Both the position numbers and the translations under genes were made by a program. The notes under the pieces were generated by a model, which was not told the DNA's origin, searched no databases, and saw only the letters and a list, made by a program, of their open reading frames with translations. DNA of 64,000 bases from an uncultured Gammaproteobacteria bacterium (GTDB lineage: Bacteria; Patescibacteriota; Microgenomatia; JALYQM01), in the NCBI GenBank assembly GCA_964403585.1, contig CAYOFQ010000001.1, forward strand, positions 648,630 through 712,629, read 5' to 3'. Of the stretch, positions 16,290-42,015 are shown one piece after another. Positions within the stretch are counted from its first letter, which is position 1; every line of letters starts with the position of its first letter.

Positions 16290-18134
16290 ATGGACCAGAA
16301 AAACATCAGAAATATCGCTATTATCGCTCACGTTGACCATGGAAAAACGACCTTGGTTGATGGTTTATTGAAGCAGTCGCACGTTTTTCGTGAGAACCAG
16401 GAAGAAATGCAGCAGACGACTATTTTAGACTCAAACACACTTGAGCGAGAGCGTGGTATTACTATTTTGGCCAAGAACACGGCTATTCACTGGGCGGACC
16501 ACAAAATCAATATTTTGGATACTCCAGGTCACGCTGATTTTTCCGGTGAGGTTGAACGTGTACTAAACATGGCCGACGGCTGTCTTTTAATTGTCGATGC
16601 TGCCGAAGGCGTCATGTCACAAACGCGTTATGTACTAAAACTGGCTTTTAACGCTCATTTAACCCCGATTGTTGTTATTAATAAGATTGATAAAAAAGAT
16701 GCCCGCCCGCAGGAAGTCCTGGAAGAAGTGAATGATCTCTTTTTGGAACTTGCGCAGGATGATAACCAACTCGATTTCTCAGTAGTATATGCTATTGGAC
16801 GCGAGGGAATAGCGTCAGAACATATCGAGCAAAATCCTGATGGCACCTGGAAAATTACCAAGGCAACCGACCTTTCGTATTTATTTGAAGTAATTATCAA
16901 CAAAATCCCCGCTCCGACCGGTGATGCATCCGGCACATTTCAGATGCAGGTAACGTCGCTCGATCGTGATGATTACAAGGGCAAGTATGTTATTGGTCGA
17001 ATTATGCGCGGTAAAGTAAAGAAAAATGACCAGCTCGCAATTTTACGCCCGGACGGTACAAGTCTTACGAAGCGAGTTGAATACCTGTTTACCTACGATG
17101 GATTACACAAAGTTGAGATAGATGAAGCATCTACCGGCGATATAGTGGCCTTAACAGGGTTCACGGAAGCGAACATTGGTGATACTCTTTCCGACCTGAA
17201 CGTCAAAGAACAGTTGCCCCCGCTGCCGATCGAAGAACCGACACTCAAGATGACATTTTCAGTGAATACGTCACCATTCGCCGGCAAAGAAGGGAAATAC
17301 TCCACATCCCGTCAGCTGCGTGAACGGCTCTATAAAGAACTGGAAGCCAATGTTGGTTTGCGAGTCGAAGACGCGCAGTCAACCGATTCCTTCATTGTCT
17401 CAGGGCGCGGAGAGCTACACTTATCAGTGCTTATCGAAACGATGCGCCGTGAAGGATATGAATTTTCCGTATCCCGTCCGGAAGTTATCTTCAAAGAAGA
17501 AAACGGCCAGACAACCGAGCCATGGGAATTGCTGACGATCGATGTTCCTGATGACTACACCGGTGTAGTTACTACCGAGATGGGCATTCGTAAAGCCGAA
17601 ATGGTGAATATGTTAAGTAATGGCAAGGGCGAGACCCGCTTTGACTATAAGATTGCTACCCGTCATTTGATCGGATTCCGCAACCAGTTTATGACTCAAA
17701 CTTCAGGTAGGGGAATAATGAACTCAATTTTTCTCGGATATGAACCCAAAGGTGACGATGTTCCTTTTAATCGAAATGGTGCACTGATCACATCTGAATC
17801 AGGTGTAACCACCACGTATGGATTGGCCAATGCGCAGGAGCGGGGAATAACTTTTGTTCCACCACAGACAAACATTTATGAAGGCATGGTTATTGGTATG
17901 AATGCCAAAAAGGAAGACATGCCGGTAAATGTATGTAAAGAGAAAAAACTAACCAACATGCGTGCTTCTTCGGCAGATATCGCCGTGAAGTTAACTCCGC
18001 CTGTTATTATGTCCCTTGAACAGTGTCTGGACTTCCTGGGACCGGACGAATTACTTGAAGTTACTCCAAAATCATTACGCTTACGTAAGCGCTTCCTGAC
18101 TGACGTAGAACGTCGCCGTGCTGCACGATCCTAA
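16290..18134 (+). CDS. typA: Translational GTPase TypA/BipA
   Basis: N-terminal G-domain IAIIAHVDHGKTTLVD with the DTPGHADF switch, and an EF-G-like domain order at BipA length (614 aa). TATAAT promoter-like box at 16256-16261. Confidence 0.92.
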   Translation: MDQKNIRNIAIIAHVDHGKTTLVDGLLKQSHVFRENQEEMQQTTILDSNTLERERGITILAKNTAIHWADHKINILDTPGHADFSGEVERVLNMADGCLLIVDAAEGVMSQTRYVLKLAFNAHLTPIVVINKIDKKDARPQEVLEEVNDLFLELAQDDNQLDFSVVYAIGREGIASEHIEQNPDGTWKITKATDLSYLFEVIINKIPAPTGDASGTFQMQVTSLDRDDYKGKYVIGRIMRGKVKKNDQLAILRPDGTSLTKRVEYLFTYDGLHKVEIDEASTGDIVALTGFTEANIGDTLSDLNVKEQLPPLPIEEPTLKMTFSVNTSPFAGKEGKYSTSRQLRERLYKELEANVGLRVEDAQSTDSFIVSGRGELHLSVLIETMRREGYEFSVSRPEVIFKEENGQTTEPWELLTIDVPDDYTGVVTTEMGIRKAEMVNMLSNGKGETRFDYKIATRHLIGFRNQFMTQTSGRGIMNSIFLGYEPKGDDVPFNRNGALITSESGVTTTYGLANAQERGITFVPPQTNIYEGMVIGMNAKKEDMPVNVCKEKKLTNMRASSADIAVKLTPPVIMSLEQCLDFLGPDELLEVTPKSLRLRKRFLTDVERRRAARS

Positions 18135-18164
18135 ACTCACGCCTACCTGCCTATTATTGCACAT

Positions 18165-18193
18165 AAAAAAGGCCGATCAAACGGCCATTTTTT
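18165..18193 (+). terminator. Rho-independent terminator, bidirectional-looking (A-tract, GGCCG stem, T-tract)
   Basis: aaaaaaGGCCGatcaaaCGGCCatttttt lies immediately after typA and before the convergent gene at 18226. Confidence 0.7.
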
Positions 18194-18225
18194 CAGACAT
18201 CCTACGCGAAGAGCTTTTCTGCAGA

Positions 18226-19809
18226 TCATGTTCCCGGAGCACAGCCACCTTTGCCGGCACCGGCAGGTCGCCCGGGGTTCTCAATCTTAATCGGCATTTG
18301 TAACACACCGGTATCGGTGCCACCTTTAAGGTCAACCGAACTGGTAACCATTGCCAGACAATGCCAGCCATTCGTAAATTGCGTTGAATCGAAGGTTACC
18401 GTTCCGGTGTAGGGACCGTTACCCTCATGTAGAATCTTTCCAAAATTATCAGCCGCAAACAACGCGTCCATATTCACGCTGTGATATCCGGTTGCTATTC
18501 CACCGGATCCCGGTTTCATTGCTGTTTTAAAAGTATACGTACCTGAAATTGGTCCGTAAGGAATAGGCGATAAGAACTGTGCGTTTTCATAGTTAGCTCC
18601 GGTAAACCAGCCACGTGCCTCCAGGAACGGCGGTGTGCGGTATTGTTTGCCATGACCGTGGAACCACGCCTGCCAACCGGTAGAGGCATTAAGCCGTTCA
18701 CCATTGGTAAAATCACTGAAGAACCGGATACGGATTTCTTCATACCCCGATAAATTTGAAGTTGGCACATCGATAGGCACCCACCAGGTACACGACGAAT
18801 TCATGTCGTTGCCGTCTTTGGTGCACTGTAACGGCGGATTAAACGTTTTTGCTATCAATTGCGTTCCACTTGGTCCTTTGCCGATATCCAATTTAGACAC
18901 TTTAGAGTTATTGCCTTTGTGCATCATCAAGCGTAAATCCAAATGCAGTTTTGAGTCATTAAAATCCTGGTCTTGAGGAAAACAGGTCGCCGTATGGGTA
19001 TGTCCGCCGATACCTTTAACCGGAAGTTGGGTATTGGTTTTAATTGAGGCTGTGTCCATCCACCAGGCCTGGGTTTCCAGAAAGATACGCTTTTCCGGAT
19101 ATCGGGAACAATCGGTAGTTCCTCCAACCGGTCCACCGGTTGGATCAGGTGATGGAGAAGGGCCGGCGGTTTGAGTCGGCGACGGTGTAGTCGTTGAACC
19201 GGGGTCAGGGACAAAAATAACAATATACATCGAGTATACTCCACCGGATATGTCGGATGCCGGTCCCATATCGAACGTTCCGGCATTAACGCGACGTTTG
19301 TAAATGTCATATAGTCCGATCAACCCCTGCTCATTTTTACGCAGCAGATATTGATTAACATTGGAACTGTCGTCATTTGTTTGCCGTGAGTACTGAGAGG
19401 TGACCCAGTTGGGGGCGGAAGATTGAAATATATGTCTGGTCGCAACAAACATCGTCCCGGGTTGTGTTACGGTAACTGACCAGTGCAAACTAGGATCGTC
19501 CTTTATCTCTGCATTCGGCGTCTGAATATAGGTGCCGCCTTCCATGGCCGGATCAATTTTGAAGAAGCTGTAACGGGAATCGGTACTGTAAATGGTTGAA
19601 TTCAATTGTAAACATTTCTTTGTAAAAGTCGTGCTTCCGTAGCTGGTCATACTGCTGACATCACTCGGGCATGCAGCTGCCTGAGTTGTATCGGCTTTGC
19701 GTAAATTCTTCAAGCTCGAAGAAACAACTACGGCTATCAGAAGCATAAACAGGCAGGTGACGATTATAAAGAATATATTAACGTCGGGGTTTTTTCTTCT
19801 AGGAGCCAT
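18226..19809 (-). CDS. Secreted/TM-anchored hypothetical protein; paralog of 37821-38789, with an extra C-terminal domain
   Basis: N-terminal signal anchor followed by about 200 aa that align clearly with ORF 37821-38789 (WSVTVTQPGTMFVATRHI...NWVTSQYSRQTNDDSSNVNQYLLRKNEQGLIGLYDIYKRR...YSMYIVIFVPDPG), then a T/P-rich linker and a roughly 300-aa C-terminal domain of unknown type. Confidence 0.75.
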   Translation of the reverse strand: MAPRRKNPDVNIFFIIVTCLFMLLIAVVVSSSLKNLRKADTTQAAACPSDVSSMTSYGSTTFTKKCLQLNSTIYSTDSRYSFFKIDPAMEGGTYIQTPNAEIKDDPSLHWSVTVTQPGTMFVATRHIFQSSAPNWVTSQYSRQTNDDSSNVNQYLLRKNEQGLIGLYDIYKRRVNAGTFDMGPASDISGGVYSMYIVIFVPDPGSTTTPSPTQTAGPSPSPDPTGGPVGGTTDCSRYPEKRIFLETQAWWMDTASIKTNTQLPVKGIGGHTHTATCFPQDQDFNDSKLHLDLRLMMHKGNNSKVSKLDIGKGPSGTQLIAKTFNPPLQCTKDGNDMNSSCTWWVPIDVPTSNLSGYEEIRIRFFSDFTNGERLNASTGWQAWFHGHGKQYRTPPFLEARGWFTGANYENAQFLSPIPYGPISGTYTFKTAMKPGSGGIATGYHSVNMDALFAADNFGKILHEGNGPYTGTVTFDSTQFTNGWHCLAMVTSSVDLKGGTDTGVLQMPIKIENPGRPAGAGKGGCAPGT

Positions 19810-19864
19810 AGCTTATTTAGCGTAAAGCAAAAAAGCAGTAATTTCAAGTGGTAGTGACAAAATG

Positions 19865-19938
19865 TAGCCCCGAGGGGAATCGAACCCCTGATCTTCAGGA
19901 TGAGAACCTGACGTCCTAGGCCGCTAGACGACGGGGCC
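19865..19938 (-). tRNA. tRNA-Glu (anticodon CTC)
   Basis: Reverse-complement cloverleaf: acceptor GGCCCCG/CGGGGCT, anticodon stem TCAGG/CCTGA with loop TTCTCAT, T-arm AGGGG-TTCGATT-CCCCT. No encoded CCA. Confidence 0.8.
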
Positions 19939-20284: not shown

Positions 20285-22798
20285 TCACTCATTGCTACCT
20301 ATTAACTGGAGTTCTTTCCACACCAGCTGGTGAGATTCTTTACCTGCCGGATTAATTGAAATTTGCTGCGTTAATTCTCTCCAGCGGGAGTGCATCTCCA
20401 GTGGATGCGCGTACTGTTCGGCATTGGCATCAGTCATCTCTTCCGTGTAATGTATAGTTCTGCGACCCGTCGATTCAATGAGAATATTTTGCTTCTCAAA
20501 CATGCGATATGTGTTTTGAAAATTAATTACCGGCTCAGTCAGATACGCATACTCTTTAATCAAATCCCACAACACATCATTCACCGCTTCGGAAGTTTCC
20601 ACTACCGGCAGTCCTAAATTTTTTGCTTCAAAGTATACAATCGGATAATCGCTCGAAGGATAACTTTGAGTCAGTGTTTGAACAATCTGTGCTATTTGAG
20701 CATCGGTTCCAGGTGTTTTTCTCAGCTTTAAAAGATTGGTACAAATCCGTTGAACTAATGACAACTGTCGGTTTGCAGCTGCAGTAACTAACGGATGGAA
20801 TGTTTCAGGATCCTGGTTTACCACAGCAGTTGAGGCTTCTTTTTGTCTTGCCGTTGATTTAGACGGCAGCGGGTTTGATGCCTGGAAAATTTCGTTGAGC
20901 GGCACCGCTACTGATTCCTGGTCAAACGATTTGCTGAGCAATTTATGCGAGAACCAGGTGTCAACAGGTGAAAGAAATCCGAACGGATTCATAAGTATCG
21001 AATCACCCGATAACGCCATCATTGTTGTCGCAACCGAAGATTCTTCAGGTAAAATTACCGTCAACTCGTCACAAAACTCGCGAACCAATGTCGCCATTCT
21101 CCAGATAACAGTGCTGTCCGCATCCTGAATAATTGGCAACAAGTAGAGCGATTTCTTTTTTCCTAACTTTCGCAAGTGGCTATAGAGATAGCGCATATCC
21201 TCCATGGATACATAGGTATTGGCCGCATAATACACGAGAACTTTTCCGTGCAGAGATTCTTCCAGGCGTTCAATCGATTCCTGTGTTCGCTCCCAGGCAA
21301 CCGGAGGTTTGCGCGGCGGAAGTGACCCGCTTTGATTTTGAGTCTTTGCTTGTGGACGTTCGGCACGTTGTTCAGGGGCTGGGAGGCGCTGCTCGCGTTC
21401 TTGCTGACGTTGGTCCCGGTCCGGCTGGCGTTGCTCCCGTTCAGGTCGTTGTTCACGCTCCGGCGGACGCTGTTCGCGGTCTGCTCGTTGTTCACGATCT
21501 GCCTGCCGAGGCGGACGTTCTGATTGAGGCATCTCTTTTGGTGCTTCCGGTGTCGTAATATCATTCTCAAAGCGGGGCTCTTCCTGCCGTGCTCGTGGCG
21601 GTTCAGTCTGTATTTTTGGCGCGGGGGGTGCCACCGTTTTTTGTTCAGCACGAGGCATCTGTTCACGCTGTTTAGGCTGCTCAGGTTGCCGTGCAGGTTG
21701 TTGTTGCGACTGCTGCTTTGGTGCTGGCTGTTCCGCCAGCTGGGGAGCTGCTTGAGCCTTCGACTCTTTTTTGGGAGCTGCTGCTACCGGCGGTGCTGGT
21801 GGTTTCGACTGCTGCTGTTGTTGTTTTGGTTGTTGAGGTACCTGCTCAGGCGGCCGCTGCTGCTGTTGCTGAGGGGCTTTTGGCTGTTGCGTCTGCTGCT
21901 TCGGCTGCGGGGGTTGCTGGGGCTGTCGTGCCGGTGCGGGTTGGGGAACCGGTGGCATTTGCTGTGCAGGTTGATTTTGATTAAACGCAGCTTGAAGCGG
22001 CGGAATTGCCGGAGGGCGGCCCGGTGCCTGACCAGGCTGCATCTGTGCATTAAGTGGCGGCAATGACGGTACGCGCTGCGGTTCAGTAGCCTGCGGCATG
22101 GATGGCATCGTTAATGGCGGTAGTACGGGTGATTTATCGGCGACAGTACCGGAAGGGTCATCAAACTGTAAACCGCTGCTCTTCAGCAGATCGTCCAGAC
22201 TCGGTAACTCAAAGGGCACATTTTGCGGATTGGCCTGCTGTCCCTGGTTACTGAAAGGAAGCGGCGGAATCTGACTCTGCTGCGGTACCGGGTTTTCAAC
22301 AGGGGGACGTCCAGGTGGTTGGTTAGGCATAGGCGCTTGACGCTGCGGAGCTGCAGGCTGAGGTGCCGGCATTGGGGCCGGTGCCTCCGGAGCCGGTGCA
22401 GTTCCGTTTGTATAACTTTCCCAGGCTAAATCAGTGATTCTTTTGTAAATCAGGTCAAAGGGCGCTTTTCGCATCTCTCCTTTAAGCCGCTGATAGCTGG
22501 TCATCGTTACCGTATTGTTGCCCATCGCGTCAACGATACTCAAGGTAACATCGGGCACATTGGGAGACGATCCTGAATCATGAACAATATTCGGCAGCTG
22601 AAAAAAACCGACTTCCCTGGCATATTGCAGGACTTCGATAACTTTCTGTCGCTCAATCTGCCGTTCGACGATATCTGTATCAGACTCAAAAATGAGCATT
22701 CGCCCATTGTCGTAAATTTCAACATCCCCGGCACGGGAGTTTGGCGGCAACATACCACCACTCATTTTTACTAGAATAGCTAGATTTGAAACAGGCAT
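20285..22798 (-). CDS. Large (837 aa) protein: N-terminal globular region, very long P/Q/A-rich disordered segment with REQR/DREQR repeats, and a C-terminal ClpP/SDH-like (serine peptidase fold) domain
   Basis: Long, clean ORF. Low-complexity PQ-rich core (…PQPAPARQPQQPPQPKQQTQQPKAPQQQQQRPP…) and tandem DREQRADREQRPPEREQRPEREQRQPDRDQRQQEREQR. C-terminal region KVLVYYAANTYV…LPEESSVATTMMALSGDSILMNPFGFLSPVD resembles the SDH/ClpP-class serine peptidase fold. Confidence 0.7.
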   Translation of the reverse strand: MPVSNLAILVKMSGGMLPPNSRAGDVEIYDNGRMLIFESDTDIVERQIERQKVIEVLQYAREVGFFQLPNIVHDSGSSPNVPDVTLSIVDAMGNNTVTMTSYQRLKGEMRKAPFDLIYKRITDLAWESYTNGTAPAPEAPAPMPAPQPAAPQRQAPMPNQPPGRPPVENPVPQQSQIPPLPFSNQGQQANPQNVPFELPSLDDLLKSSGLQFDDPSGTVADKSPVLPPLTMPSMPQATEPQRVPSLPPLNAQMQPGQAPGRPPAIPPLQAAFNQNQPAQQMPPVPQPAPARQPQQPPQPKQQTQQPKAPQQQQQRPPEQVPQQPKQQQQQSKPPAPPVAAAPKKESKAQAAPQLAEQPAPKQQSQQQPARQPEQPKQREQMPRAEQKTVAPPAPKIQTEPPRARQEEPRFENDITTPEAPKEMPQSERPPRQADREQRADREQRPPEREQRPEREQRQPDRDQRQQEREQRLPAPEQRAERPQAKTQNQSGSLPPRKPPVAWERTQESIERLEESLHGKVLVYYAANTYVSMEDMRYLYSHLRKLGKKKSLYLLPIIQDADSTVIWRMATLVREFCDELTVILPEESSVATTMMALSGDSILMNPFGFLSPVDTWFSHKLLSKSFDQESVAVPLNEIFQASNPLPSKSTARQKEASTAVVNQDPETFHPLVTAAANRQLSLVQRICTNLLKLRKTPGTDAQIAQIVQTLTQSYPSSDYPIVYFEAKNLGLPVVETSEAVNDVLWDLIKEYAYLTEPVINFQNTYRMFEKQNILIESTGRRTIHYTEEMTDANAEQYAHPLEMHSRWRELTQQISINPAGKESHQLVWKELQLIGSNE

Positions 22799-22996: not shown

Positions 22997-23620
22997 ATGA
23001 ATAAACTACTGATGGTGTTTTGTTTAGTCGTTATTAGTTTAACGGCCTGTACTCCTGTTAGCGAGACCGTGGTTACCCCTGCTCCCGTCACAGCATCTCC
23101 AGCCCCAACACTCGCCCGCACGGCACCACCCAAAAAATCAGGATACATTCAATATGTAAATGAGGAATTGAAATATGGTTTTAGTTATCCTCAAACAGAA
23201 CAGCTATCAAAGTGTGCCGACTCTCACTGTCTTTCGATTGATCGTATTGGGCTGGTTGTTGAATTTTTAAGCGCCGAAGAAATTTCAGGAAACGACCGGC
23301 TGGCCAGTCTAACCTACAGTGATCTGATGTGCGCCGCTTCGGGGCCGAATGCCTCGATTGATTGTAAGAATCAGTCAGCCGTAGACTTTACCAACGAACT
23401 GGGGTTTAAGGGATACAAAGTAACCCGTACTAAGGAAATTGTCGGAAAAATTTCCTCAGCGGGTATCTATACAGATAGTGTCTATGTTTATCTGTTACCG
23501 GAAGTTGTGAAAGGTCCGGGTCTAACCGACTATGCTGCAGTATTTTTTACGGTTACCCGACCGGATAAAGCCAACCTGAAGTCTCTGGAATCTATTGCCC
23601 AAACAGCCTTTACGTTGTAA
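22997..23620 (+). CDS. Putative lipoprotein (hypothetical)
   Basis: Lipobox-like signal MNKLLMVFCLVVISLTAC followed by a T/P/A-rich stretch and a domain of unknown type. Confidence 0.6.
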   Translation: MNKLLMVFCLVVISLTACTPVSETVVTPAPVTASPAPTLARTAPPKKSGYIQYVNEELKYGFSYPQTEQLSKCADSHCLSIDRIGLVVEFLSAEEISGNDRLASLTYSDLMCAASGPNASIDCKNQSAVDFTNELGFKGYKVTRTKEIVGKISSAGIYTDSVYVYLLPEVVKGPGLTDYAAVFFTVTRPDKANLKSLESIAQTAFTL

Positions 23621-23683
23621 ATTCCGGCTTGTTTTGCAAATGTAAAGACTCCAACATCTTGCGCAATCTGTTAAAATATATAA

Positions 23684-24343
23684 ATGGTAATTAATAAAAG
23701 CAAAGTTATATCCTTGCCACGCGAATATCGCGATAACGAAGACCTTTTTGTTTGCCCGTGCCCTGTGTGCGTGGAGAGAATGTATTCAGACCAAGCCGAG
23801 AAGGCGCAGGTGGAACAAGCCAAAAATATCATTGAAGAAATTTTCCAAAACTCGGCGCTTAAAGTAAAAGACTTCCAGATTCAGGTGGCCTATGCTGACA
23901 CAATTCCAACTGCTCCGGCTAATAAGCCGCGTCCGGAGACTAGAGCTTCACGTGCCGCAATTAAAGCCGTCCTGGGATTAACCACCCGTTTTAACAAGAA
24001 ATACCGTCATCCACTGGTTTGCCAGTTAAATGCATTGGCTTTAGACACACAGACGGACATTCTCCATTACGAAGCCATGGTGGAATACGGTGATTTGGTT
24101 GAAAACCAATTATGGAAGCTGGAAGCAATTGCGACTCAGGTTACGCAAATTGCAGAGATCCTCAGCCAAATTGGTACCGAAGCTTTTCTCAGTCCCGAAA
24201 GAGTTGTTGCCCTGGATAAAAAAATTGAGGTTATCTCACGATCCAATAAAATTCAGCTTAAGAAACTTTTTATCAACGCACTGAAAATACCTGAATTTGA
24301 ACCGCATTGCACATTCGAAGATTTTCAACTACCCTATTATTAA
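23684..24343 (+). CDS. Hypothetical protein
   Basis: 219-aa ORF with no recognisable motif. TATATAAATG context suggests a -10-like box adjacent to the ATG. Confidence 0.5.
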   Translation: MVINKSKVISLPREYRDNEDLFVCPCPVCVERMYSDQAEKAQVEQAKNIIEEIFQNSALKVKDFQIQVAYADTIPTAPANKPRPETRASRAAIKAVLGLTTRFNKKYRHPLVCQLNALALDTQTDILHYEAMVEYGDLVENQLWKLEAIATQVTQIAEILSQIGTEAFLSPERVVALDKKIEVISRSNKIQLKKLFINALKIPEFEPHCTFEDFQLPYY

Positions 24344-33625: not shown

Positions 33626-34306
33626 CTAATTGAAAGGTTTCTTAATAACAGTAATAAGTTGAAATAACCATCCAATTGATACGACGCCGATCATATTCGT
33701 GATCAGAGATATATAACTTTCGCGAAGTTCCGGATTGGCATCAATATACCCAAGCAATCCTACCCCGGCAAACAGAGGAACTAACATTAGTATTAGAATT
33801 ACTCCAATTGGCAGATGTAGTTTATTGCCGACAAAACTTATCCCACTCATTCCCATCGTTAAAAGAAACAGCAACAGCGGTATCAAAAAAAACTCACTGA
33901 CTAATCGATAGTATTCGGGAGCGATAAAAAGGAGCGCGGTGAGTTCTGAACGATATTCACTAAACAGAAATGATTCCAGGTACACACTCAGCGCGAATGA
34001 GATCCAGAAAAACTTATACGGATAAGAAAATAACCAAGACAATAAGGTACCTTCTTTCACAGAAATTAGCTGACGCTTTTTTGGTATCGAGATTTTTTTA
34101 GGAAGTAATTGATGCAGAGAAAAAGGCACAAGTATTGCTAGGATAATTGGAAGAAAGAGGATAAAACCAGGCAACTCACCGGTGTAAAAATGAACCATGC
34201 TCCGCACGACAACAAGCACTGCAAAACCGGTCAAGGCAAAGTCAATAAATGATGTCACATATTCATCCCAATAGCCTAAATAACGTGCATACGGTTGCGG
34301 TTCCAT
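33626..34306 (-). CDS. Integral membrane protein (hypothetical, about 6 TM)
   Basis: Multiple hydrophobic helices. AT-rich like its neighbour. No motif recognised. Confidence 0.55.
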   Translation of the reverse strand: MEPQPYARYLGYWDEYVTSFIDFALTGFAVLVVVRSMVHFYTGELPGFILFLPIILAILVPFSLHQLLPKKISIPKKRQLISVKEGTLLSWLFSYPYKFFWISFALSVYLESFLFSEYRSELTALLFIAPEYYRLVSEFFLIPLLLFLLTMGMSGISFVGNKLHLPIGVILILMLVPLFAGVGLLGYIDANPELRESYISLITNMIGVVSIGWLFQLITVIKKPFN

Positions 34307-34542
34307 ACTCCTATGGTAACAAAAGCAGAAAAATAAACCAGGCAGCGAATTTTGCGACAGTTTACAATGATAGTATAATATTCCCGCTCAATTATTTTAG
34401 CGCTTCACTTTCTCAATGAGAGGAATCTGAGGAAAATAATAATTCGGCAATGCTAGTACGTTGAAAATTAATCGTCACTTGGGTTGCAGAAAAATGAACA
34501 TGAATTGTCGTGTTCAGAAACTGCAACTCAGGAGGCAACAGA

Positions 34543-35367
34543 ATGGGTAGACGAATTCGGAAAGTCCCAGGCCTGGTATGGCTGGCACTGATCGCGCTGC
34601 TGCTGGCGTCGTGTGAGGGAAGTCCCCTCACGTCGGAGCCGACAGCCCAACCGGCCATCGCAGTCACCGGCATCACCGCGGCACCGAGCCCAACCACGCC
34701 GCCAACGGACGCGCCAACGGCCACAACTGCCCCGAGCCCAACGCCGCTGCCACCCAGCCCGACCGCAACACTGACGGTAACACTACTACCGACGGGCACA
34801 CCCATCCCAGTTGAGCTGCCGACATTGATTCCTGCCACCGCGTCTCCAAACACGGTGATTCTTGGCGGCACGTTTGAGGCCGGTACATCCCAAGGCTGGC
34901 TGACATCCTCGCCCGATGTAACGAATGCCATTGGCACTACCGACGAGCACCACACTGGTGCTGGCGCACTGCAGATCAACGTCAGGGCCGGCCAAAAGGC
35001 AACCTTCATCTCTACCTGGATCGATACGGGGCGGAACTTGCCGGAGGGGGTTGATTCTCTTGGCCCTCGGGATCTGAACAACGCGCCGATGGAGGCGTGG
35101 GTGAAGGTCACCTTCGCTAGCGACAAGAAGGTAGCCATTCGCGCCTTCGCGCGCGATACTACCGGTGCCAATAACCTCGGCGAAATGGAATGGGTGAGCA
35201 GTGGTGAATGGCACAAAGTTGAACTCCTGATTGGCAGCGGCCAACAGGATAGCGGGTTTAACCCTAGGAATGTCACCGCGTTTGGCGTCATGCTCGACAG
35301 CTATGAGTATGAACTCGGAGAAGGTGACCATCTCTACATCGACGACTTGAAGATCATCGACGACTAG
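34543..35367 (+). CDS. GC-rich putative lipoprotein with T/P-rich linker and C-terminal beta-sandwich (CBM-like) domain
   Basis: Lipobox LIALLLASC and a long TTPPTDAPTATTAPSPTPLPPSPT linker. The C-terminal domain (GGTFEAGTSQGW...YIDDLKIIDD) resembles carbohydrate-binding/jelly-roll modules. Sampled GC is about 63% versus about 45% background. The overlapping minus-strand ORFs are judged to be GC artefacts. Confidence 0.65.
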   Translation: MGRRIRKVPGLVWLALIALLLASCEGSPLTSEPTAQPAIAVTGITAAPSPTTPPTDAPTATTAPSPTPLPPSPTATLTVTLLPTGTPIPVELPTLIPATASPNTVILGGTFEAGTSQGWLTSSPDVTNAIGTTDEHHTGAGALQINVRAGQKATFISTWIDTGRNLPEGVDSLGPRDLNNAPMEAWVKVTFASDKKVAIRAFARDTTGANNLGEMEWVSSGEWHKVELLIGSGQQDSGFNPRNVTAFGVMLDSYEYELGEGDHLYIDDLKIIDD

Positions 35368-35722: not shown

Positions 35723-35812
35723 GCATTATGAAGGTATCCACGCTCATTACATCCAAGAATATCTAACATCTGTGGTGTGGACTTTCGGTTTTTATTGGGT
35801 TACAATAGAAAG

Positions 35813-37813
35813 ATGGACGAAAATACATTTCATCTTGAATCTGAGTTCAAACCAACAGGCGACCAGCCGCTGGCGATTGAAAAATTGACTAAAGGAGTTC
35901 TCGCTGGAGACAAAAATCAAACATTGTTAGGTGTTACCGGAAGTGGAAAAACATTCTCAATTGCGAACGTAATTCAGCAGGTTCAAAAGCCAACCCTGGT
36001 AATCTCTCATAACAAAACGCTGGCTGCACAACTGTATCAGGAATTCCGAGACTTTTTTCCGAAGAATGCTGTAGAGTATTTTGTTTCGTACTACGACTAT
36101 TATCAGCCGGAGGCCTATGTCCCGCAAACCGATACTTATATTGAAAAAGAAACCGAAATCAACGAAGAAATAGATAAACTTCGTCTTTCTGCCACAACGT
36201 CATTACTAACCCGTAGAGATGTAATTGTCGTTGCATCAGTCTCGTGTATCTATAACATCGGTTCACCAAAAGAATATCAGGAAGCCATTCTTACTGCGCA
36301 TGTCGGGCAATTTACCAACATGGATTTAGCCATGAAGGTGCTTTCCCGCATGTCGTATGTTCGCAATGATTTCGAGTTTCAACGCGGCATGTACCGCCGC
36401 AGAGGTGATACGCTGGATGTGTATCCGTCCTACACCGACTATTTTGTCCGTATCGAATTTCTCGGTGACCAAATCGACCGGATCAGTCAAATTGATCCGA
36501 TGAGTGGCGAAATATTGGACCGGCCAAAAATGATTTCAGTATATCCGGCTAAACACTATGTTACTCCACTGGATAAAATGCAGTCGGCAATCGAAGAAAT
36601 CCGTCGGGATCTCGAAATACGCGTTGAACAGCTGAAAGCCGAAGGGAAAACAATGGAGGCCTACCGCCTTAACCAGCGTACGAATTATGATCTGGAGATT
36701 ATTCAGGAAATCGGTTACTGCAACGGTATCGAAAACTATTCCCGCTATTTTGACGGCCGTCCTCCGGGAGCCGCGCCAAATTCGTTACTTGAATTCTTTC
36801 CCAAGGATTATCTCCTGGTTATCGATGAATCGCACATTACCATCCCGCAGATTCGCGGCATGTACAACGGCGACCAGGCACGTAAGAAGACGCTTGTCGA
36901 TTTCGGTTTCCGCTTACCGGCAGCCATGGATAACCGCCCACTCAAATTTGATGAATTTTTACGCCGGATTAATCAGACCATCTATGTATCTGCAACACCG
37001 AATGAGTATGAACTAAGTCTTTCTGATCAGGTCGTCGAACAACTTATCCGGCCAACCGGTATTGTTGACCCGGAAATAGAAGTACGACCAACCGAAGGTC
37101 AAATCAAAGACTTAATGAATGAAATTATTATTCGGGCTGAACGCAAAGAAAAGGTACTCGTTACAACCTTAACTAAGCGCATGTCCGAAGATCTCACGAC
37201 CTTCCTAACTGAGAAAAAAGTAAAAGTAGCTTATTTGCACTCCGAAGTCGAAACATTAGACCGAAGCGACATTCTGGATGATCTCCGCCGGGGAACCTAT
37301 GACGTGGTCGTCGGGGTAAACCTGCTTCGTGAGGGTCTCGATTTGCCCGAAGTCTCGCTGGTCGCGATTCTTGACGCCGACAAGGAAGGATTTTTACGCT
37401 CACATACATCACTAGTCCAAACCATGGGGCGTGCCGCCCGCCATATTAACGGTAGGGTTATTATGTATGCCGATACCATGACCAAGTCAATGAAATCTTC
37501 AATTGATGAAGTTAACCGCCGGCGCGAAGTGCAATTGGCATACAATCAGGAACACAATATTACGCCTCAACAGATTTCCAAAAAAATTCGTGAAAAGCTG
37601 ATCGACCGGATAGTCGAGGAGGAACCTGAGAAGGTCAAAGAGAATCGAGCAGAGGCTGTATATAACCAGGCGATAGCCGGTGAGTTAATACCACAGGACA
37701 AAACCAAGCTCGTAACCTATCTGACAAAGAAGATGAAGGAAGCTGCTAAAGAGTTTCGGTTTGAAGAAGCAGCGGTAATTCGGGATAAAATAGCCAAGCT
37801 CAGGGATCAGTAA
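35813..37813 (+). CDS. uvrB: Excinuclease ABC subunit B
   Basis: Helicase motifs (GVTGSGKT), a beta-hairpin region and a C-terminal UvrB/UvrC interaction motif (EFRFEEAAVIRDKI). The track start at 35777 is upstream; the first ATG giving the canonical N-terminus is at 35813. Confidence 0.93.
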   Translation: MDENTFHLESEFKPTGDQPLAIEKLTKGVLAGDKNQTLLGVTGSGKTFSIANVIQQVQKPTLVISHNKTLAAQLYQEFRDFFPKNAVEYFVSYYDYYQPEAYVPQTDTYIEKETEINEEIDKLRLSATTSLLTRRDVIVVASVSCIYNIGSPKEYQEAILTAHVGQFTNMDLAMKVLSRMSYVRNDFEFQRGMYRRRGDTLDVYPSYTDYFVRIEFLGDQIDRISQIDPMSGEILDRPKMISVYPAKHYVTPLDKMQSAIEEIRRDLEIRVEQLKAEGKTMEAYRLNQRTNYDLEIIQEIGYCNGIENYSRYFDGRPPGAAPNSLLEFFPKDYLLVIDESHITIPQIRGMYNGDQARKKTLVDFGFRLPAAMDNRPLKFDEFLRRINQTIYVSATPNEYELSLSDQVVEQLIRPTGIVDPEIEVRPTEGQIKDLMNEIIIRAERKEKVLVTTLTKRMSEDLTTFLTEKKVKVAYLHSEVETLDRSDILDDLRRGTYDVVVGVNLLREGLDLPEVSLVAILDADKEGFLRSHTSLVQTMGRAARHINGRVIMYADTMTKSMKSSIDEVNRRREVQLAYNQEHNITPQQISKKIREKLIDRIVEEEPEKVKENRAEAVYNQAIAGELIPQDKTKLVTYLTKKMKEAAKEFRFEEAAVIRDKIAKLRDQ

Positions 37814-37820
37814 TACCTGA

Positions 37821-38789
37821 CTACTGCACCATAAATATTCTCAAAATATCGTTTGACGCATTTGTATGCTTATGCGGAGCGCCGCCTGAAGCTTCCGGAA
37901 AGGCGGCATCACCAGTATCATACTGTGCAGTCATATCGGTTCCACATCCTGAAACAATCGAGGGCTTCCCTCCGGAATGAAACTTAATATAGTCGGTAAT
38001 GTTATAGAGGTGTCGTCCGTCGGTTTTATCGGTATAGACGACGTAGCAATCAGTTTCCCTATTGTGAAGCTTCGCAATCTCAAGCAGTGGGTCAGGTGTC
38101 GGCGTTGGTACCGGCGTAGGGCTTGGGGTGCGAGTCGGAGTAGGGGAGGGAGTTGGTGATACTTCCGGGCCGGGTACAATCGCAACAATATACATTGAGT
38201 AGGCCGCAGCCTGAGCATCGGAAGCTGCTCCAAAAGTAATAGTCCCTGCAGGTGCTGTCCTGGAATAAAAATCGTAAATACCAATCAATCCGAGCTCATT
38301 TTTCCGTTTTGCGTACTGATTAATATGTGAAAGATCATCGTTGGTCGAGCGCGAATAGCCGTTTTTTATCCAATTGGGTACCTGATTAATACTCGGGATG
38401 TGCCGGGTAAGAATATAGACTGTCGATTGGACTGCTGTCGTTACCGACCAACTCAACGTGGTCGAATCTTTTATTTCGGAATTGGGTGTCAATACAAAGG
38501 CAGCGTTATTAATTGACTGGTCAGGCAGGAAGAAAAGAAAGCGGCTATCCGTAGAATACATTTGAACATTATTCTCAATACAGCCTTTGTTGAATGTGTA
38601 CCCGGCAGGACTGTTTATTGAAAAAAATGAGGTTGAACATCCAATCTGAGCATCGGTGTCGTCGGTATGGTTAAGTTCAGATTTGGTTATCCTTGTTGAG
38701 GCGTAGACTCCAAAAGTCAGGATACTCCCAACCAGCACTACCACGAGTAACTCGTTCATATAAGCATTTTTCATTTTCATCGGTTGCAT
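37821..38789 (-). CDS. Secreted/TM-anchored hypothetical protein; paralog of 18226-19809, with a C-terminal cytochrome-b5-like segment
   Basis: The N-terminal 200 aa align with ORF 18226-19809 (WSVTTAVQSTVYILTRHI...NWIKNGYSRSTNDDLSHINQYAKRKNELGLIGIYDFYSR...YSMYIVAIVPGPE), followed by a TPSPTPTRTPSPTPVPTPTPDP linker. The C-terminus LEIAKLHNRETDCYVVYTDKTDGRHLYNITDYIKFHSGG resembles the cytochrome b5 heme-binding motif (...HPGG). Confidence 0.7.
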   Translation of the reverse strand: MQPMKMKNAYMNELLVVVLVGSILTFGVYASTRITKSELNHTDDTDAQIGCSTSFFSINSPAGYTFNKGCIENNVQMYSTDSRFLFFLPDQSINNAAFVLTPNSEIKDSTTLSWSVTTAVQSTVYILTRHIPSINQVPNWIKNGYSRSTNDDLSHINQYAKRKNELGLIGIYDFYSRTAPAGTITFGAASDAQAAAYSMYIVAIVPGPEVSPTPSPTPTRTPSPTPVPTPTPDPLLEIAKLHNRETDCYVVYTDKTDGRHLYNITDYIKFHSGGKPSIVSGCGTDMTAQYDTGDAAFPEASGGAPHKHTNASNDILRIFMVQ

Positions 38790-38970
38790 TACTTTTATAA
38801 TTGCCTAATTTAATGCAAAGCGCAAGAGTAAAATGTACATCAAACAGAAAAAGACAACATTCTTAGTCTGGAAATTTCTTTACAAACATGATACACTGAT
38901 TAACGCTTTATACCCGAAAATTACCAGAAAGCATCATACACTATTACTGTAAATCCTAAGGAGATTCTGC

Positions 38971-41900
38971 ATGTCCAGAGACCTCATTTCAATCAAAGGT
39001 GCACGCGAGAACAATCTTAAAAACGTCGATATAGAAATACCCAAGCATAAATTGGTAGTCTTTACCGGACTGTCAGGATCAGGAAAGTCCTCTCTTGCTT
39101 TTGATACTATTTATGCCGAAGGCCAGCGCCGGTATGTTGAATCACTTTCATCGTATGCACGTCAATTTTTAGGAGTAATGGATAAACCTGATGCAGATTA
39201 TATTGAAGGACTATCTCCGGCAATCTCTATCGATCAGAAAGCAGCTTCACATAACCCTCGTTCCACTGTGGGAACTACAACCGAAATATATGATTACCTC
39301 CGTCTACTGTTCGCCCGTGTCGGCCACCCACATTGTCCGAAATGCGGACGGGAAATTCAACACATGTCGATCGATCAGATCGTCGATTCAGCCTTCCGCT
39401 TAGCCGGAGATATAATGTCCAAGAACAAACAAGTTTCTTTGCGGGGAGCACGGCTTTTCATATTGTCTCCTGTCGTCAAAGAAAGAAAAGGCGAGTTTAG
39501 TAACTTGTTCTCTGACCTCCGCAAAAAAGGTTTTGCCCGAGCACGTATCGATGGCACCGTTCGTGACTTATCTGACGATTTCGGACTGATTAAAACCAAC
39601 AAACACTCCATCGATGCACTGGTTGACCGTTTAGTAATCTCACAGGAAATTGTTGACTTATTCACCAAACAAGCCGCTGAAGGTAAAGACGCTTTGTCTC
39701 TAGAAGACTTTGAAAAGTTACAAAGCATCCGTACCCGATTGTCACAGTCACTGGAACAAGCACTCAAGCTTTCCGAAGGAACTGCCATTGTAGCTGAAAT
39801 TCAAGACGATGACATTAATTTTCCTCAGGACCCAAAGAAAATGGAAGATCATCTCTTTTCGGAAAATTTTGCCTGTCCGTTTGACAACATTTCGTTACCC
39901 GAGATTGAACCGCGTACATTCTCTTTTAATTCACCACAGGGAGCCTGCCCTAACTGTGCGGGCTTAGGAACAGAATTAAAAATTGATGCGGATCTGATCT
40001 TGAATCCCAATCTCAGTATTTCCGAAGGGGGAATTCTACCGTGGAATCGACTCTCCAGCACTGAAACCTGGTTTACCAGAATTATAAATGAAGTAGCTAC
40101 TGCTAAAGGTTTTTCAGTAAAAACACCGATCAAGGACTTATCTGAAGAGGCAAAAAATATTCTGCTCAACGGTACCGGAACCGAAACATTTTTTGTGAAA
40201 GGTGAAAACCGGCAGGGAAGACAAACCGGATTCGAGACAACCTTTGAAGGCGTAATCCCGAATCTGTTACGCCGCTATAAAGAAACAGAATCCGATTATG
40301 TGCGCGGTGAAATTGAAAAATACATGCGCTCGGAATTATGTCCTGTTTGTGAAGGTAAACGCTTAAAGCCGGAGGCACTTTCGGTGACAATCAACAAAGA
40401 TTCAATTTATGATATCACCAATAATTCAATTAAAAATGCCTTAACCTGGGTACATTCTCTCCAAAACGGCAAGATTCTATCCGATCGTGAAACGGTAATC
40501 GGCAAACCTATTCTCAAAGAAATTGTCAACCGACTTCAGTTCTTAATTGATGTCGGCTTAGACTACTTAACTCTCAACCGTACTTCAGCAACACTCGCCG
40601 GTGGAGAAGCCCAGCGTATCAGATTGGCATCACAAATCGGCTCGGGATTAACCGGCGTTCTCTATGTGCTCGACGAGCCGTCTATCGGGTTACACCAGCG
40701 CGATAACACCAAACTTATTAAAACATTGAAGCGTTTACGCGACCTTGGTAACAGTGTCATCGTTGTTGAGCACGATGAAGAAACAATGGAAGACTCCGAT
40801 TACATATTTGATTTTGGACCGGGGGCAGGTGAACATGGAGGACAAATTATTGCCCATGGAACGCCTGAGGAAATTAAGAGCAATAAAAAATCAATCACTG
40901 GTCAATATTTATCGGGTAAAAAAGTTGTGGAAGTAGATAAAAACTTCTCAGTGAAAGAACTGATGGATTTTGATCAGCGAAGGCGTAAGAAAGTCAATGA
41001 AGCGATTGCCGAAGTAAAAATACTCGGAGCCCGGGAACATAATCTAAAAGGGATTGATGTTTCCATCCCACTGAGTAAATTTGTCTGCGTTACCGGCGTT
41101 TCCGGATCAGGTAAGTCCACTTTGGTCCACGACATATTATATAAATCGCTATCCGAACATTTCTTTCATTCCAAAGATAAACCGGGCAAACATGATACGA
41201 TCGTCGGACTGGAGGCACTGGATAAATGCGTCATGATCGACCAGTCGCCAATTGGCCGAACGCCTCGTTCAAATCCTGCAACGTATACCGGTGCGTTTAC
41301 CTATATTCGTGAGCTTTTCGCCCGGACGACTGAAGCACAGGTTCGCGGATATGGACCGGGACGGTTCAGTTTTAATGTCAAAGGCGGCCGCTGCGAAGTA
41401 TGCCAGGGAGACGGCATGATCAAAATCGAAATGCAGTTTCTTCCCGATGTGTATGTAAATTGTGACGCCTGTGAGGGGAAGCGGTATAACCGTGAAGCAC
41501 TGGAAGTGCATTATCGCGGCAAAAACATCTTTGACGTGTTAAACATGACAGTCGAGGAAGGCCTCGATTTCTTCGGAAGCATCCCGGCATTACGCAATAA
41601 ACTTGAGACCTTATACGATGTCGGTCTTGGGTATATTCGTTTGGGACAGCCCGCAACCCAATTGTCCGGAGGAGAAGCCCAACGTATTAAGCTCGCCTCG
41701 GAGTTATCAAAACGACCGACCGGCCATACCATGTACATTCTCGATGAACCGACCACCGGGTTGCACTTTGCGGATATTTCGCGCTTGTTATCAATTCTGC
41801 GACGTTTAGTGAACCACGGAAATACTGTTCTGGTTATCGAGCATAATTTGGATGTGATCAAAAACGCCGACTGGCTTATCGATCTTGGCCCGGAAGGTGG

Positions 41901-42015
41901 CGATGGTGGTGGTACTTTAGTCGCCGAAGGAGCACCTGAACTAATCGCAGAAGTAAAGGAAAGTTATACAGGCAAATACCTGAAAAAAATCTTCGACAAG
42001 CAAAAGAACGCCTGA
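38971..42015 (+). CDS. uvrA: Excinuclease ABC subunit A
   Basis: Two ABC ATPase modules ([12 protein letters not shown]; [11 protein letters not shown]), zinc-finger Cys clusters and signature motifs ([12 protein letters not shown]; [12 protein letters not shown]), at a length of 1014 aa. Confidence 0.95.

Follow-up and report, generated by a model that had tools for sequence, protein, structure and literature searches.

Domain A, an unnamed beta-sandwich module with many payloads in an uncultured bacterial lineage, is a candidate carbohydrate-binding or display module

The connection of a binding module via a linker to a payload is a well-known design of proteins, which is found in carbohydrate-active enzymes (CAZymes) equipped with carbohydrate-binding modules (CBMs) and in the display of proteins by cohesin-dockerin pairs. 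CBM96, one family of such modules, binds polyuronates. Here, we describe two genes, W1 and W2, which are located on the minus strand of a 64,000-nucleotide stretch of DNA from an uncultured bacterium (the window, part of the 1,573,555-bp contig CAYOFQ010000001.1) and whose products conform to this design with modules that are themselves unnamed. Both proteins share a common layout consisting of an N-terminal transmembrane (TM) helix, about 15 residues leading to a folded domain termed A, a Pro/Thr linker and an unrelated C-terminus, which is formed by a second domain termed B in W1 and by a cytochrome b5-like domain in W2 (Table 1). With A and B, the pair contains two modules not represented in Pfam or NCBIfam. 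From sequences and predicted models, we propose for domain A, with a probability of about 55%, the role of a CBM-like binding and targeting module that serves one common, likely glycan ligand in a multi-copy extracytoplasmic family to which W1 and W2 belong.

A sequence-only reading of the same DNA had described W1 and W2 as paralogous secreted proteins with an N-terminal TM anchor, T/P linkers and different C-terminal modules, and all of these features are borne out by our data. In BLASTP, both open reading frames (ORFs) align with 89 identities in 208 positions (43%) at an E-value of 6e-46, which rules out chance similarity. The alignment is limited to the N-terminal 203-208 residues, encompassing the TM helix, a juxtamembrane segment and domain A, with the remainder of both proteins being without match. 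The shared domain, initially put at roughly 200 residues, has to be revised to a folded unit of about 160 residues, which is 48% identical between W2 and W1. The Kyte-Doolittle hydropathy of the TM helices reaches maxima of 3.12 over 19 residues in W1 and of 2.1 in W2, and the linkers extend over 26-28 residues with a combined content of Pro, Thr and Ser of 63% in the 30 residues following domain A of W1 and of 70% in W2. Matches of these linkers to internalin, ClfB, TonB and the proteins P0024-P0026 were discarded as low-complexity artefacts of P/T stretches. In a six-frame scan of the window with a hidden Markov model (HMM), W1 and W2 contain the only copies of domain A. The product of W1 deposited at NCBI (P0001, 506 residues) begins at Met22 and lacks most of the TM helix (19746-19809); the start of the 527-residue protein is backed by the Logan product P0027, which is identical to it, and by orthologues in which the charged N-region and the entire helix are retained. 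We rejected the assignment as lipoprotein, as the first invariant Cys is located 13-25 residues past the hydrophobic helix and is kept in C-terminal copies of domain A following a P/T linker, and therefore belongs to the domain and not to a lipobox. A cleavable signal peptide ending at an AAA/C motif is equally unlikely, with the motif being about 15 residues away from the h-region.

Neither Pfam, even at E≤10, nor NCBIfam contains a model for domain A, and a profile of its close family (A1) retrieves only noise from the sequences of the PDB (2YXY, E 1.1). The structure predicted by AlphaFold2 (AF2) is all-beta, with a predicted local distance difference test value (pLDDT) of 87.5 and a predicted template modelling score (pTM) of 0.86. 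A Foldseek search of the PDB with this model yields three significant matches, which comprise the glycoside hydrolase (GH) of family GH2 in the entry 6HPD (E 4.4e-6, TMq 0.72, root mean square deviation 2.6 Å, 156 columns) and two chains of the GH138 structure 6HZF (E 1e-4 to 5e-4). On the level of sequence, the link to 6HPD came only via profile A4, which was built from 30 modules of distant relatives of domain A. This profile matches residues 865-988 of 6HPD with an E-value of 6.6e-20, aligns with A1 in hhalign at 99.6% (E 6e-25) and, used as HMM, finds W1 (E 1e-18) and W2 (E 3e-16) in the window. The match of A4 to 6HPD and its alignment with A1 together show that domain A represents a lineage-specific and divergent offshoot of an existing unnamed family of beta-sandwich modules, whose sole solved member is the C-terminal domain of the Formosa GH2 in 6HPD, a fragment that is itself not covered by any Pfam model. 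Weaker profile matches correspond to modules of about 145 residues, which are present as 2-6 repeats in giant surface proteins. Nine such repeat-bearing proteins were scanned with Pfam and contain TSP3, Big_5, PKD, Flg_new, fn3 or type IX secretion system (T9SS) sorting domains, with no Pfam model covering the module itself in any of the nine and a relaxed scan giving nothing consistent. Compared to this wider family, domain A has gained a Cys pair and an insertion of about nine residues with an RKN...YDxY motif. The earlier view of a novel domain is thus correct with respect to existing models but has to be restricted with respect to ancestry.

The close family of domain A is small and confined. 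Word-indexed searches of 5.8 billion clusters retrieved about 12 relatives, and an exhaustive search of 1.84 billion representatives with the domain A profile retrieved 177 matches at E≤1e-3 and 40 at E≤1e-30. The close-family version of the domain is found in 58 proteins scoring at least 98 bits, and the close family, when grouped at 50% identity, amounts to about 55 clusters in a space of about 15 billion proteins. On the contig of the window we identified at least five copies (W1, W2, P0010, P0018 and P0021). A motif scan of 185,579 species genomes, with one genome per species and the pattern [LK]RKN[ED][QL]GLI, which detects this clade only, located the family in two assemblies, namely CAZHTP01 (6 loci) and JALYQM01 (11 loci). 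The loci of the latter carry at least 13 domain A ORFs, one of them apparently frameshifted: at L017 (5866-7418), the gene is split over two frames covering HMM positions 2-87 and 88-157, which reflects either a pseudogene or an assembly error. Some domain A genes of JALYQM01 reside in adjacent pairs (L005 3235-7936, L012 4309-8335), which suggests local duplication or recombination; at L005, a 1073-residue protein with C-terminal domain A is directly followed by a 499-residue protein carrying the domain at its N-terminus.

Across 48 close members, domain A is combined with 14 different Pfam partner families, including Cyt-b5 (five cases), Phytase, Alginate_lyase, Beta_helix and Metallophos (three each), Alginate_lyase2 (two) and the single cases DUF4832, DUF4874, GH5, GH31, GH39, GH88, NosD and fn3. 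It thus constitutes a non-catalytic module that is contiguous with CAZymes (PF05426, PF08787, PF13229, GH5, GH31, GH39 and GH88) and also with proteins outside this class. The initial notion of a lineage-specific surface-protein family with domain swapping is borne out by the number of clusters, the two assemblies found in the genome scan and the diversity of partners, with a location at the surface being predicted from the topology, the pair of conserved Cys and the enzymes found as partners. In about 38 representatives, domain A follows the N-terminal TM helix at a distance of 12-18 residues, with 13 residues in W1, and about 14 others carry it at their extreme C-terminus, where it closes the protein after a P/T linker. 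The constant short distance from the helix could indicate that the domain is a mere structural pedestal or spacer, or an aid for folding or secretion devoid of a ligand of its own, as beta-sandwich spacers are common in surface proteins. We regard this explanation as unlikely, since a spacer would have no purpose in the C-terminal copies that are located far from the anchor, and since the conservation of the domain extends beyond the needs of a passive scaffold. This conservation is manifested in 24 invariant columns in an alignment of 12 members, whose paralogues are otherwise 34-49% identical. In domain numbering, the invariant positions encompass two Cys near the N-terminus, which probably form a disulfide, the polar and aromatic residues Y31, D34, N56, K60, R82 and W92 and a clade-specific loop with the sequence RKNxxGLIGxYDxY containing R114, K115, N116, Y124, D125 and Y127.

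The distribution of these residues also bears on the identity of a potential ligand. A conventional CBM would direct each enzyme to the environmental polysaccharide that it degrades, and not to a common or self ligand, as might be expected from the prevalence of polysaccharide lyases and hydrolases on P/T linkers among the partners and from the residence of the solved relative in a GH2, an enzyme which we take to originate from an ulvan-utilisation locus. However, the putative site of domain A is invariant across alginate lyases and members of GH5, GH31, GH39 and GH88 of very different specificity, and equally so on cytochrome b5, phytase and metallophosphatase payloads. A ligand that is common to all family members is therefore favoured over the substrate of each enzyme, and we consider targeting to individual substrates to be improbable.

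Domain B, which forms the C-terminal part of W1, comprises about 297 residues. At E≤10, Pfam returns nothing but noise for it, and NCBIfam contains no match. A profile based on 14 sequences (A2) finds 47 proteins, none of them with a Pfam model on the B region, and obtains no sequence match in the PDB at E≤10. The AF2 model (pLDDT 84.8, pTM 0.84) shows 16 strands arranged in two Ig/FN3-like sandwiches, and its fold matches in PDB and BFVD are confined to tandem Ig/FN3-like proteins with template modelling scores (TM-scores) of 0.2-0.27, including RbmA, complement MG domains, Vps26/arrestin, transglutaminase C-terminal barrels and phage FN3 proteins. In 52 aligned B domains, the residues Q247, W249, W250, H270, H272, H297, E358, R360, Y390, W401, Y407, D448 and H483 are conserved to at least 90%, which suggests an active or metal site formed by a cluster of four His with Glu, Arg and Tyr. 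A Cys adjoining H483 and a C-terminal GKGGC tail are either both present or both absent, which fits a disulfide. Four of six loci of B homologues are Wzy-type exopolysaccharide (EPS) clusters (L020 P0186, L023 P0192, L024 P0196 and L025 P0191), which encode Wzy_C, GT2, GT4, epimerases, Wzz, polysaccharide deacetylase and UDP-glucose dehydrogenase, and in the case of L024 also a stand-alone CBM96. As payload of W1, domain B would thus probably act on or bind EPS. Among the two remaining loci, one adjoins a GH140-like gene and the other is inside a phage structural module (L022 6001-6876, P0195), where the B homologue is placed between portal and protease-capsid genes and an HK97 gp10-like gene; this phage-encoded protein may be a glycan-binding decoration or a tail accessory protein.

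Homologues of domain B are found either alone (270-350 residues) or in the combinations CBM96+B, dockerin+B, phytase+B, metallophos+dockerin+B and TM+A+B, with P0054 being a second, divergent protein containing A and B. One of the dockerin+B genes is a neighbour of a cohesin gene, with additional dockerin genes next to it. These architectures raise the question of whether domain A is a protein-protein docking module, an analogue of dockerin that binds a cohesin-like or S-layer scaffold for the display of multiple enzymes on the surface. In such a scenario, the pairing of phytase, metallophosphatase and B payloads with dockerin near a cohesin gene in other lineages would find an explanation, as would the high conservation of the interaction loop across paralogues with unrelated payloads and the occurrence of domain A once per protein at a terminus, as in dockerins. 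Conversely, neither the window nor the fetched loci contain a candidate scaffold with repeated receptor domains, and the wider family consists of tandem repeats and the C-terminal domain of a GH2, which is typical for glycan-binding and adhesin modules and not for dockerins. The dockerin model PF00404 matches neither W1 nor W2 at E≤1, and the model of domain A is all-beta. A docking function thus appears doubtful.

The payload of W2 belongs to the cytochrome b5 family by score, as residues 240-293 match PF00173 with 31.2 bits (E 2.3e-7) at a gathering score of 23.7, and phmmer retrieves the b5 structures 4B8N (E 1.2e-5), 3LF5 and 3KS0 from the PDB, in line with the resemblance to the heme-binding motif recognized earlier. 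Among the five Cyt-b5 matches in the 48 close family members, the best reaches an E-value of 4.9e-18. The first axial His (H271) is located in the sequence FHSGG, with Ser replacing Pro of the HPGG motif, and is invariant in an alignment that includes bovine b5 (A5). In W2 and its relatives P0020 and P0021, no His is found at the canonical spacing of the second axial ligand about 24 residues downstream (..F.D.GHS..). At this site, the proteins contain an insertion, after which the sequence continues with HKHT, HRHT or HLSHS; in the MAFFT alignment, these stretches are matched to HS of the bovine protein. The homologues P0056, P0059 and P0066 keep a His at the canonical spacing. The second heme ligand of W2 is possibly H306 or H308 of the HKH sequence, and we consider heme binding by this domain as plausible.

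Taken together, these features are consistent with a mechanism where an uncleaved N-terminal TM helix would hold W1 and W2 in the membrane, with domain A being placed about 15 residues past the helix and a flexible Pro/Thr linker bearing the variable payload, which in the case of W2 would position a cytochrome b5-like heme domain outside of the membrane. Domain A would retain every payload of the family at a single shared ligand, most likely a glycan, which might be an acidic polysaccharide that contains uronate and belongs to the cell surface or the matrix, and would take the slot that is held by CBM96 or dockerin in other lineages. The acidic character of the ligand is weakly supported by a bias towards alginate lyases, GH88, UDP-glucose dehydrogenase in the B clusters and CBM96. 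Several observations weigh against this proposal. Domain A does not match any Pfam CBM model at E≤10, irrespective of whether members of A1 or A4 are used, and its significant fold matches do not include a solved stand-alone CBM. We found no description of the function of the 6HPD or GH138 modules in the literature. Phytase, metallophosphatase and cytochrome b5 are not carbohydrate-active, and substrate targeting can therefore not account for all fusions. Moreover, proteins that are anchored by a TM helix have no obvious need for a second attachment, in a diderm host W1- and W2-type proteins would be periplasmic, and the fold of domain B has no enzyme precedent among its structural matches.

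In light of these properties, the most interesting leads for further study are the link of domain B to EPS clusters together with its His cluster and the presumably externally tethered b5 domain. Their combination leads to a speculative and in our view very unlikely scenario, in which domain B would be a new metal-dependent His-cluster enzyme cleaving or modifying uronate EPS and the b5 domains tethered by domain A in W2 and P0021 would be its extracellular electron donors, with domain A gathering both on one polymer. If true, this would establish a bacterial analogue of the fungal redox pair of cytochrome and lytic polysaccharide monooxygenase, based on entirely different folds.

Neither W1 nor W2 is surrounded by a carbohydrate-utilisation operon. 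W1 is convergent with typA, with a terminator-like hairpin between them, and might be on one transcript with an upstream tRNA-Glu, which is preceded by a sigma-70-like promoter with 11 of 12 consensus positions (19988-19960, consensus match only). W2 occupies the gap between the convergent uvrB, at a distance of 7 bp, and the divergent uvrA. When comparing the regions 16290-19809 and 35777-42015 of the window with the related metagenome-assembled genome CAZHTP01, we find the same order of genes (L001 5878-7392 and 7761-9599; L004 2662-9574). TypA, UvrA and UvrB are 92-93% identical between both genomes, whereas the orthologues of W1 and W2 share 74% and 51% of their residues and therefore diverge much faster than their neighbours. 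Both genes thus appear as fast-evolving islands amid conserved housekeeping genes, as is often the case for exposed proteins. Orthologues of W1 were identified with 75% (P0002), 74% (L001) and 62% (P0003) identity, the orthologue of W2 (P0020/L004, 51-52%) is located in the same gap between uvrB and uvrA, and P0021 is a paralogue of W2 on the contig of the window. In JALYQM01, a protein located 3.8 kb from typA combines domain A with a metallophosphoesterase in place of domain B, which fits an exchange of payloads between possible positional orthologues.

Table 1. Features of W1, W2 and their immediate surroundings in the window.
Feature	Position	Strand	Basis
W1 gene, 527 aa (TM anchor, domain A, P/T linker, domain B)	18226..19809	-	ORF
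W1 N-terminal TM helix, aa 12-30, probable signal anchor	19720..19776	-	hydropathy
W1 domain A, aa 45-203	19201..19677	-	family HMM, 265 bits
W1 Pro/Thr/Ser-rich linker, aa 204-231	19117..19200	-	composition
W1 domain B, aa 232-527, unnamed tandem beta-sandwich	18229..19116	-	14-sequence profile
W2 gene, 322 aa (TM anchor, domain A, P/T linker, cytochrome b5-like domain)	37821..38789	-	ORF
W2 N-terminal TM helix, aa 14-30	38700..38750	-	hydropathy
W2 domain A, aa 49-208	38166..38645	-	family HMM, 246 bits
W2 Pro/Thr linker, aa 209-234	38088..38165	-	composition
W2 cytochrome b5-like domain, aa 235-322	37824..38087	-	PF00173 match
Bidirectional terminator-like hairpin	18171..18186	.	GGCCG...CGGCC stem, T-runs on both strands; consensus match only
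tRNA-Glu(CUC), 54 bp upstream of W1 on the same strand	19864..19938	-	ARAGORN and Rfam

Several other genes of the window were noted alongside W1 and W2. An 837-residue protein (20285-22798, minus strand) has a repetitive middle part of about 400 residues that is extremely rich in Pro, Gln, Glu and Arg, and its C-terminal part matches a ClpP-like SDH-type serine proteinase family below the threshold (26 bits compared to 31.3). A transglutaminase-like protein of 604 residues (PF01841; 42037-43851, plus strand) is encoded between uvrA and uvrC. Several nearby ORFs of 200-290 residues (22997-24343, 33626-35291) have no Pfam match at E≤0.01, which fits a poorly characterised lineage.

The described family offers a view of the surface equipment of an uncultured lineage with small genomes, where one handle is combined with many payloads and evolves much faster than the housekeeping genes next to it. 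We propose domain A as a candidate for a new carbohydrate-binding or display module, whose wider family extends to at least 177 cluster representatives. Should a defined polymer prove to be its ligand, domain A would become the founding member of a new CBM family, and the extra domain in the GH2 structure 6HPD would be explained. Isolated domain A, isolated domain B and the b5 domain linked to domain A constitute concrete constructs for such studies.

Finally, the modules of W1 and W2 can be compared to their closest known counterparts. For domain B, the best fold matches are tandem FN3/Ig-like matrix proteins such as RbmA from Vibrio cholerae (4BE6, E 8.5e-5), with which it shares the presence of two beta-sandwiches and an association with EPS and the biofilm matrix. 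Domain B and these proteins differ in their sequences, which show no similarity, in their low structural correspondence (TM-scores 0.22-0.27) and in the presence of the His4/Glu/Arg/Tyr cluster and of predicted disulfides in domain B. In the cytochrome b5 family (PF00173), represented by b5 from an Ostreococcus virus (4B8N) and b558 from Ectothiorhodospira (1CXY), W2 shares the core DCW..V.G.VY..T.F...HPGG...G.D.T..F. It deviates from these proteins by HSGG in place of HPGG, a five-residue insertion before the core strand and an insertion of about 12 residues at the site of the second axial His, with the candidate ligand being displaced to the HKH sequence at positions 306-308, and further by its predicted extracytoplasmic location and its fusion to a putative binding module. 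In fungi, a cytochrome of a different fold is joined to a CBM in carbohydrate-binding cytochromes and in cellobiose dehydrogenase.

The C-terminal domain of the GH2 from Formosa agariphila (6HPD, residues ~865-988) resembles domain A as part of a homologous fold and sequence family and as a terminal appendage of a carbohydrate-active enzyme. It differs from domain A, which contains an N-terminal Cys pair and the insertion of about nine residues with the sequence RKNxxGLIGxYDxY, in most cases follows a TM anchor and is present in multiple copies per genome. To our knowledge, a ligand has been demonstrated for neither of the two. With CAZymes composed of CBM, linker and catalytic unit, such as fusions of CBM96, and with cohesin-dockerin display, domain A shares the features of a terminal non-catalytic module, a Pro/Thr linker and interchangeable payloads, a likeness that is underlined by the occurrence of CBM96, dockerin or domain A in the same slot next to domain B. 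Domain A differs from both systems in that it matches no model of a CBM or a dockerin and combines a TM anchor with payloads that extend beyond CAZymes.

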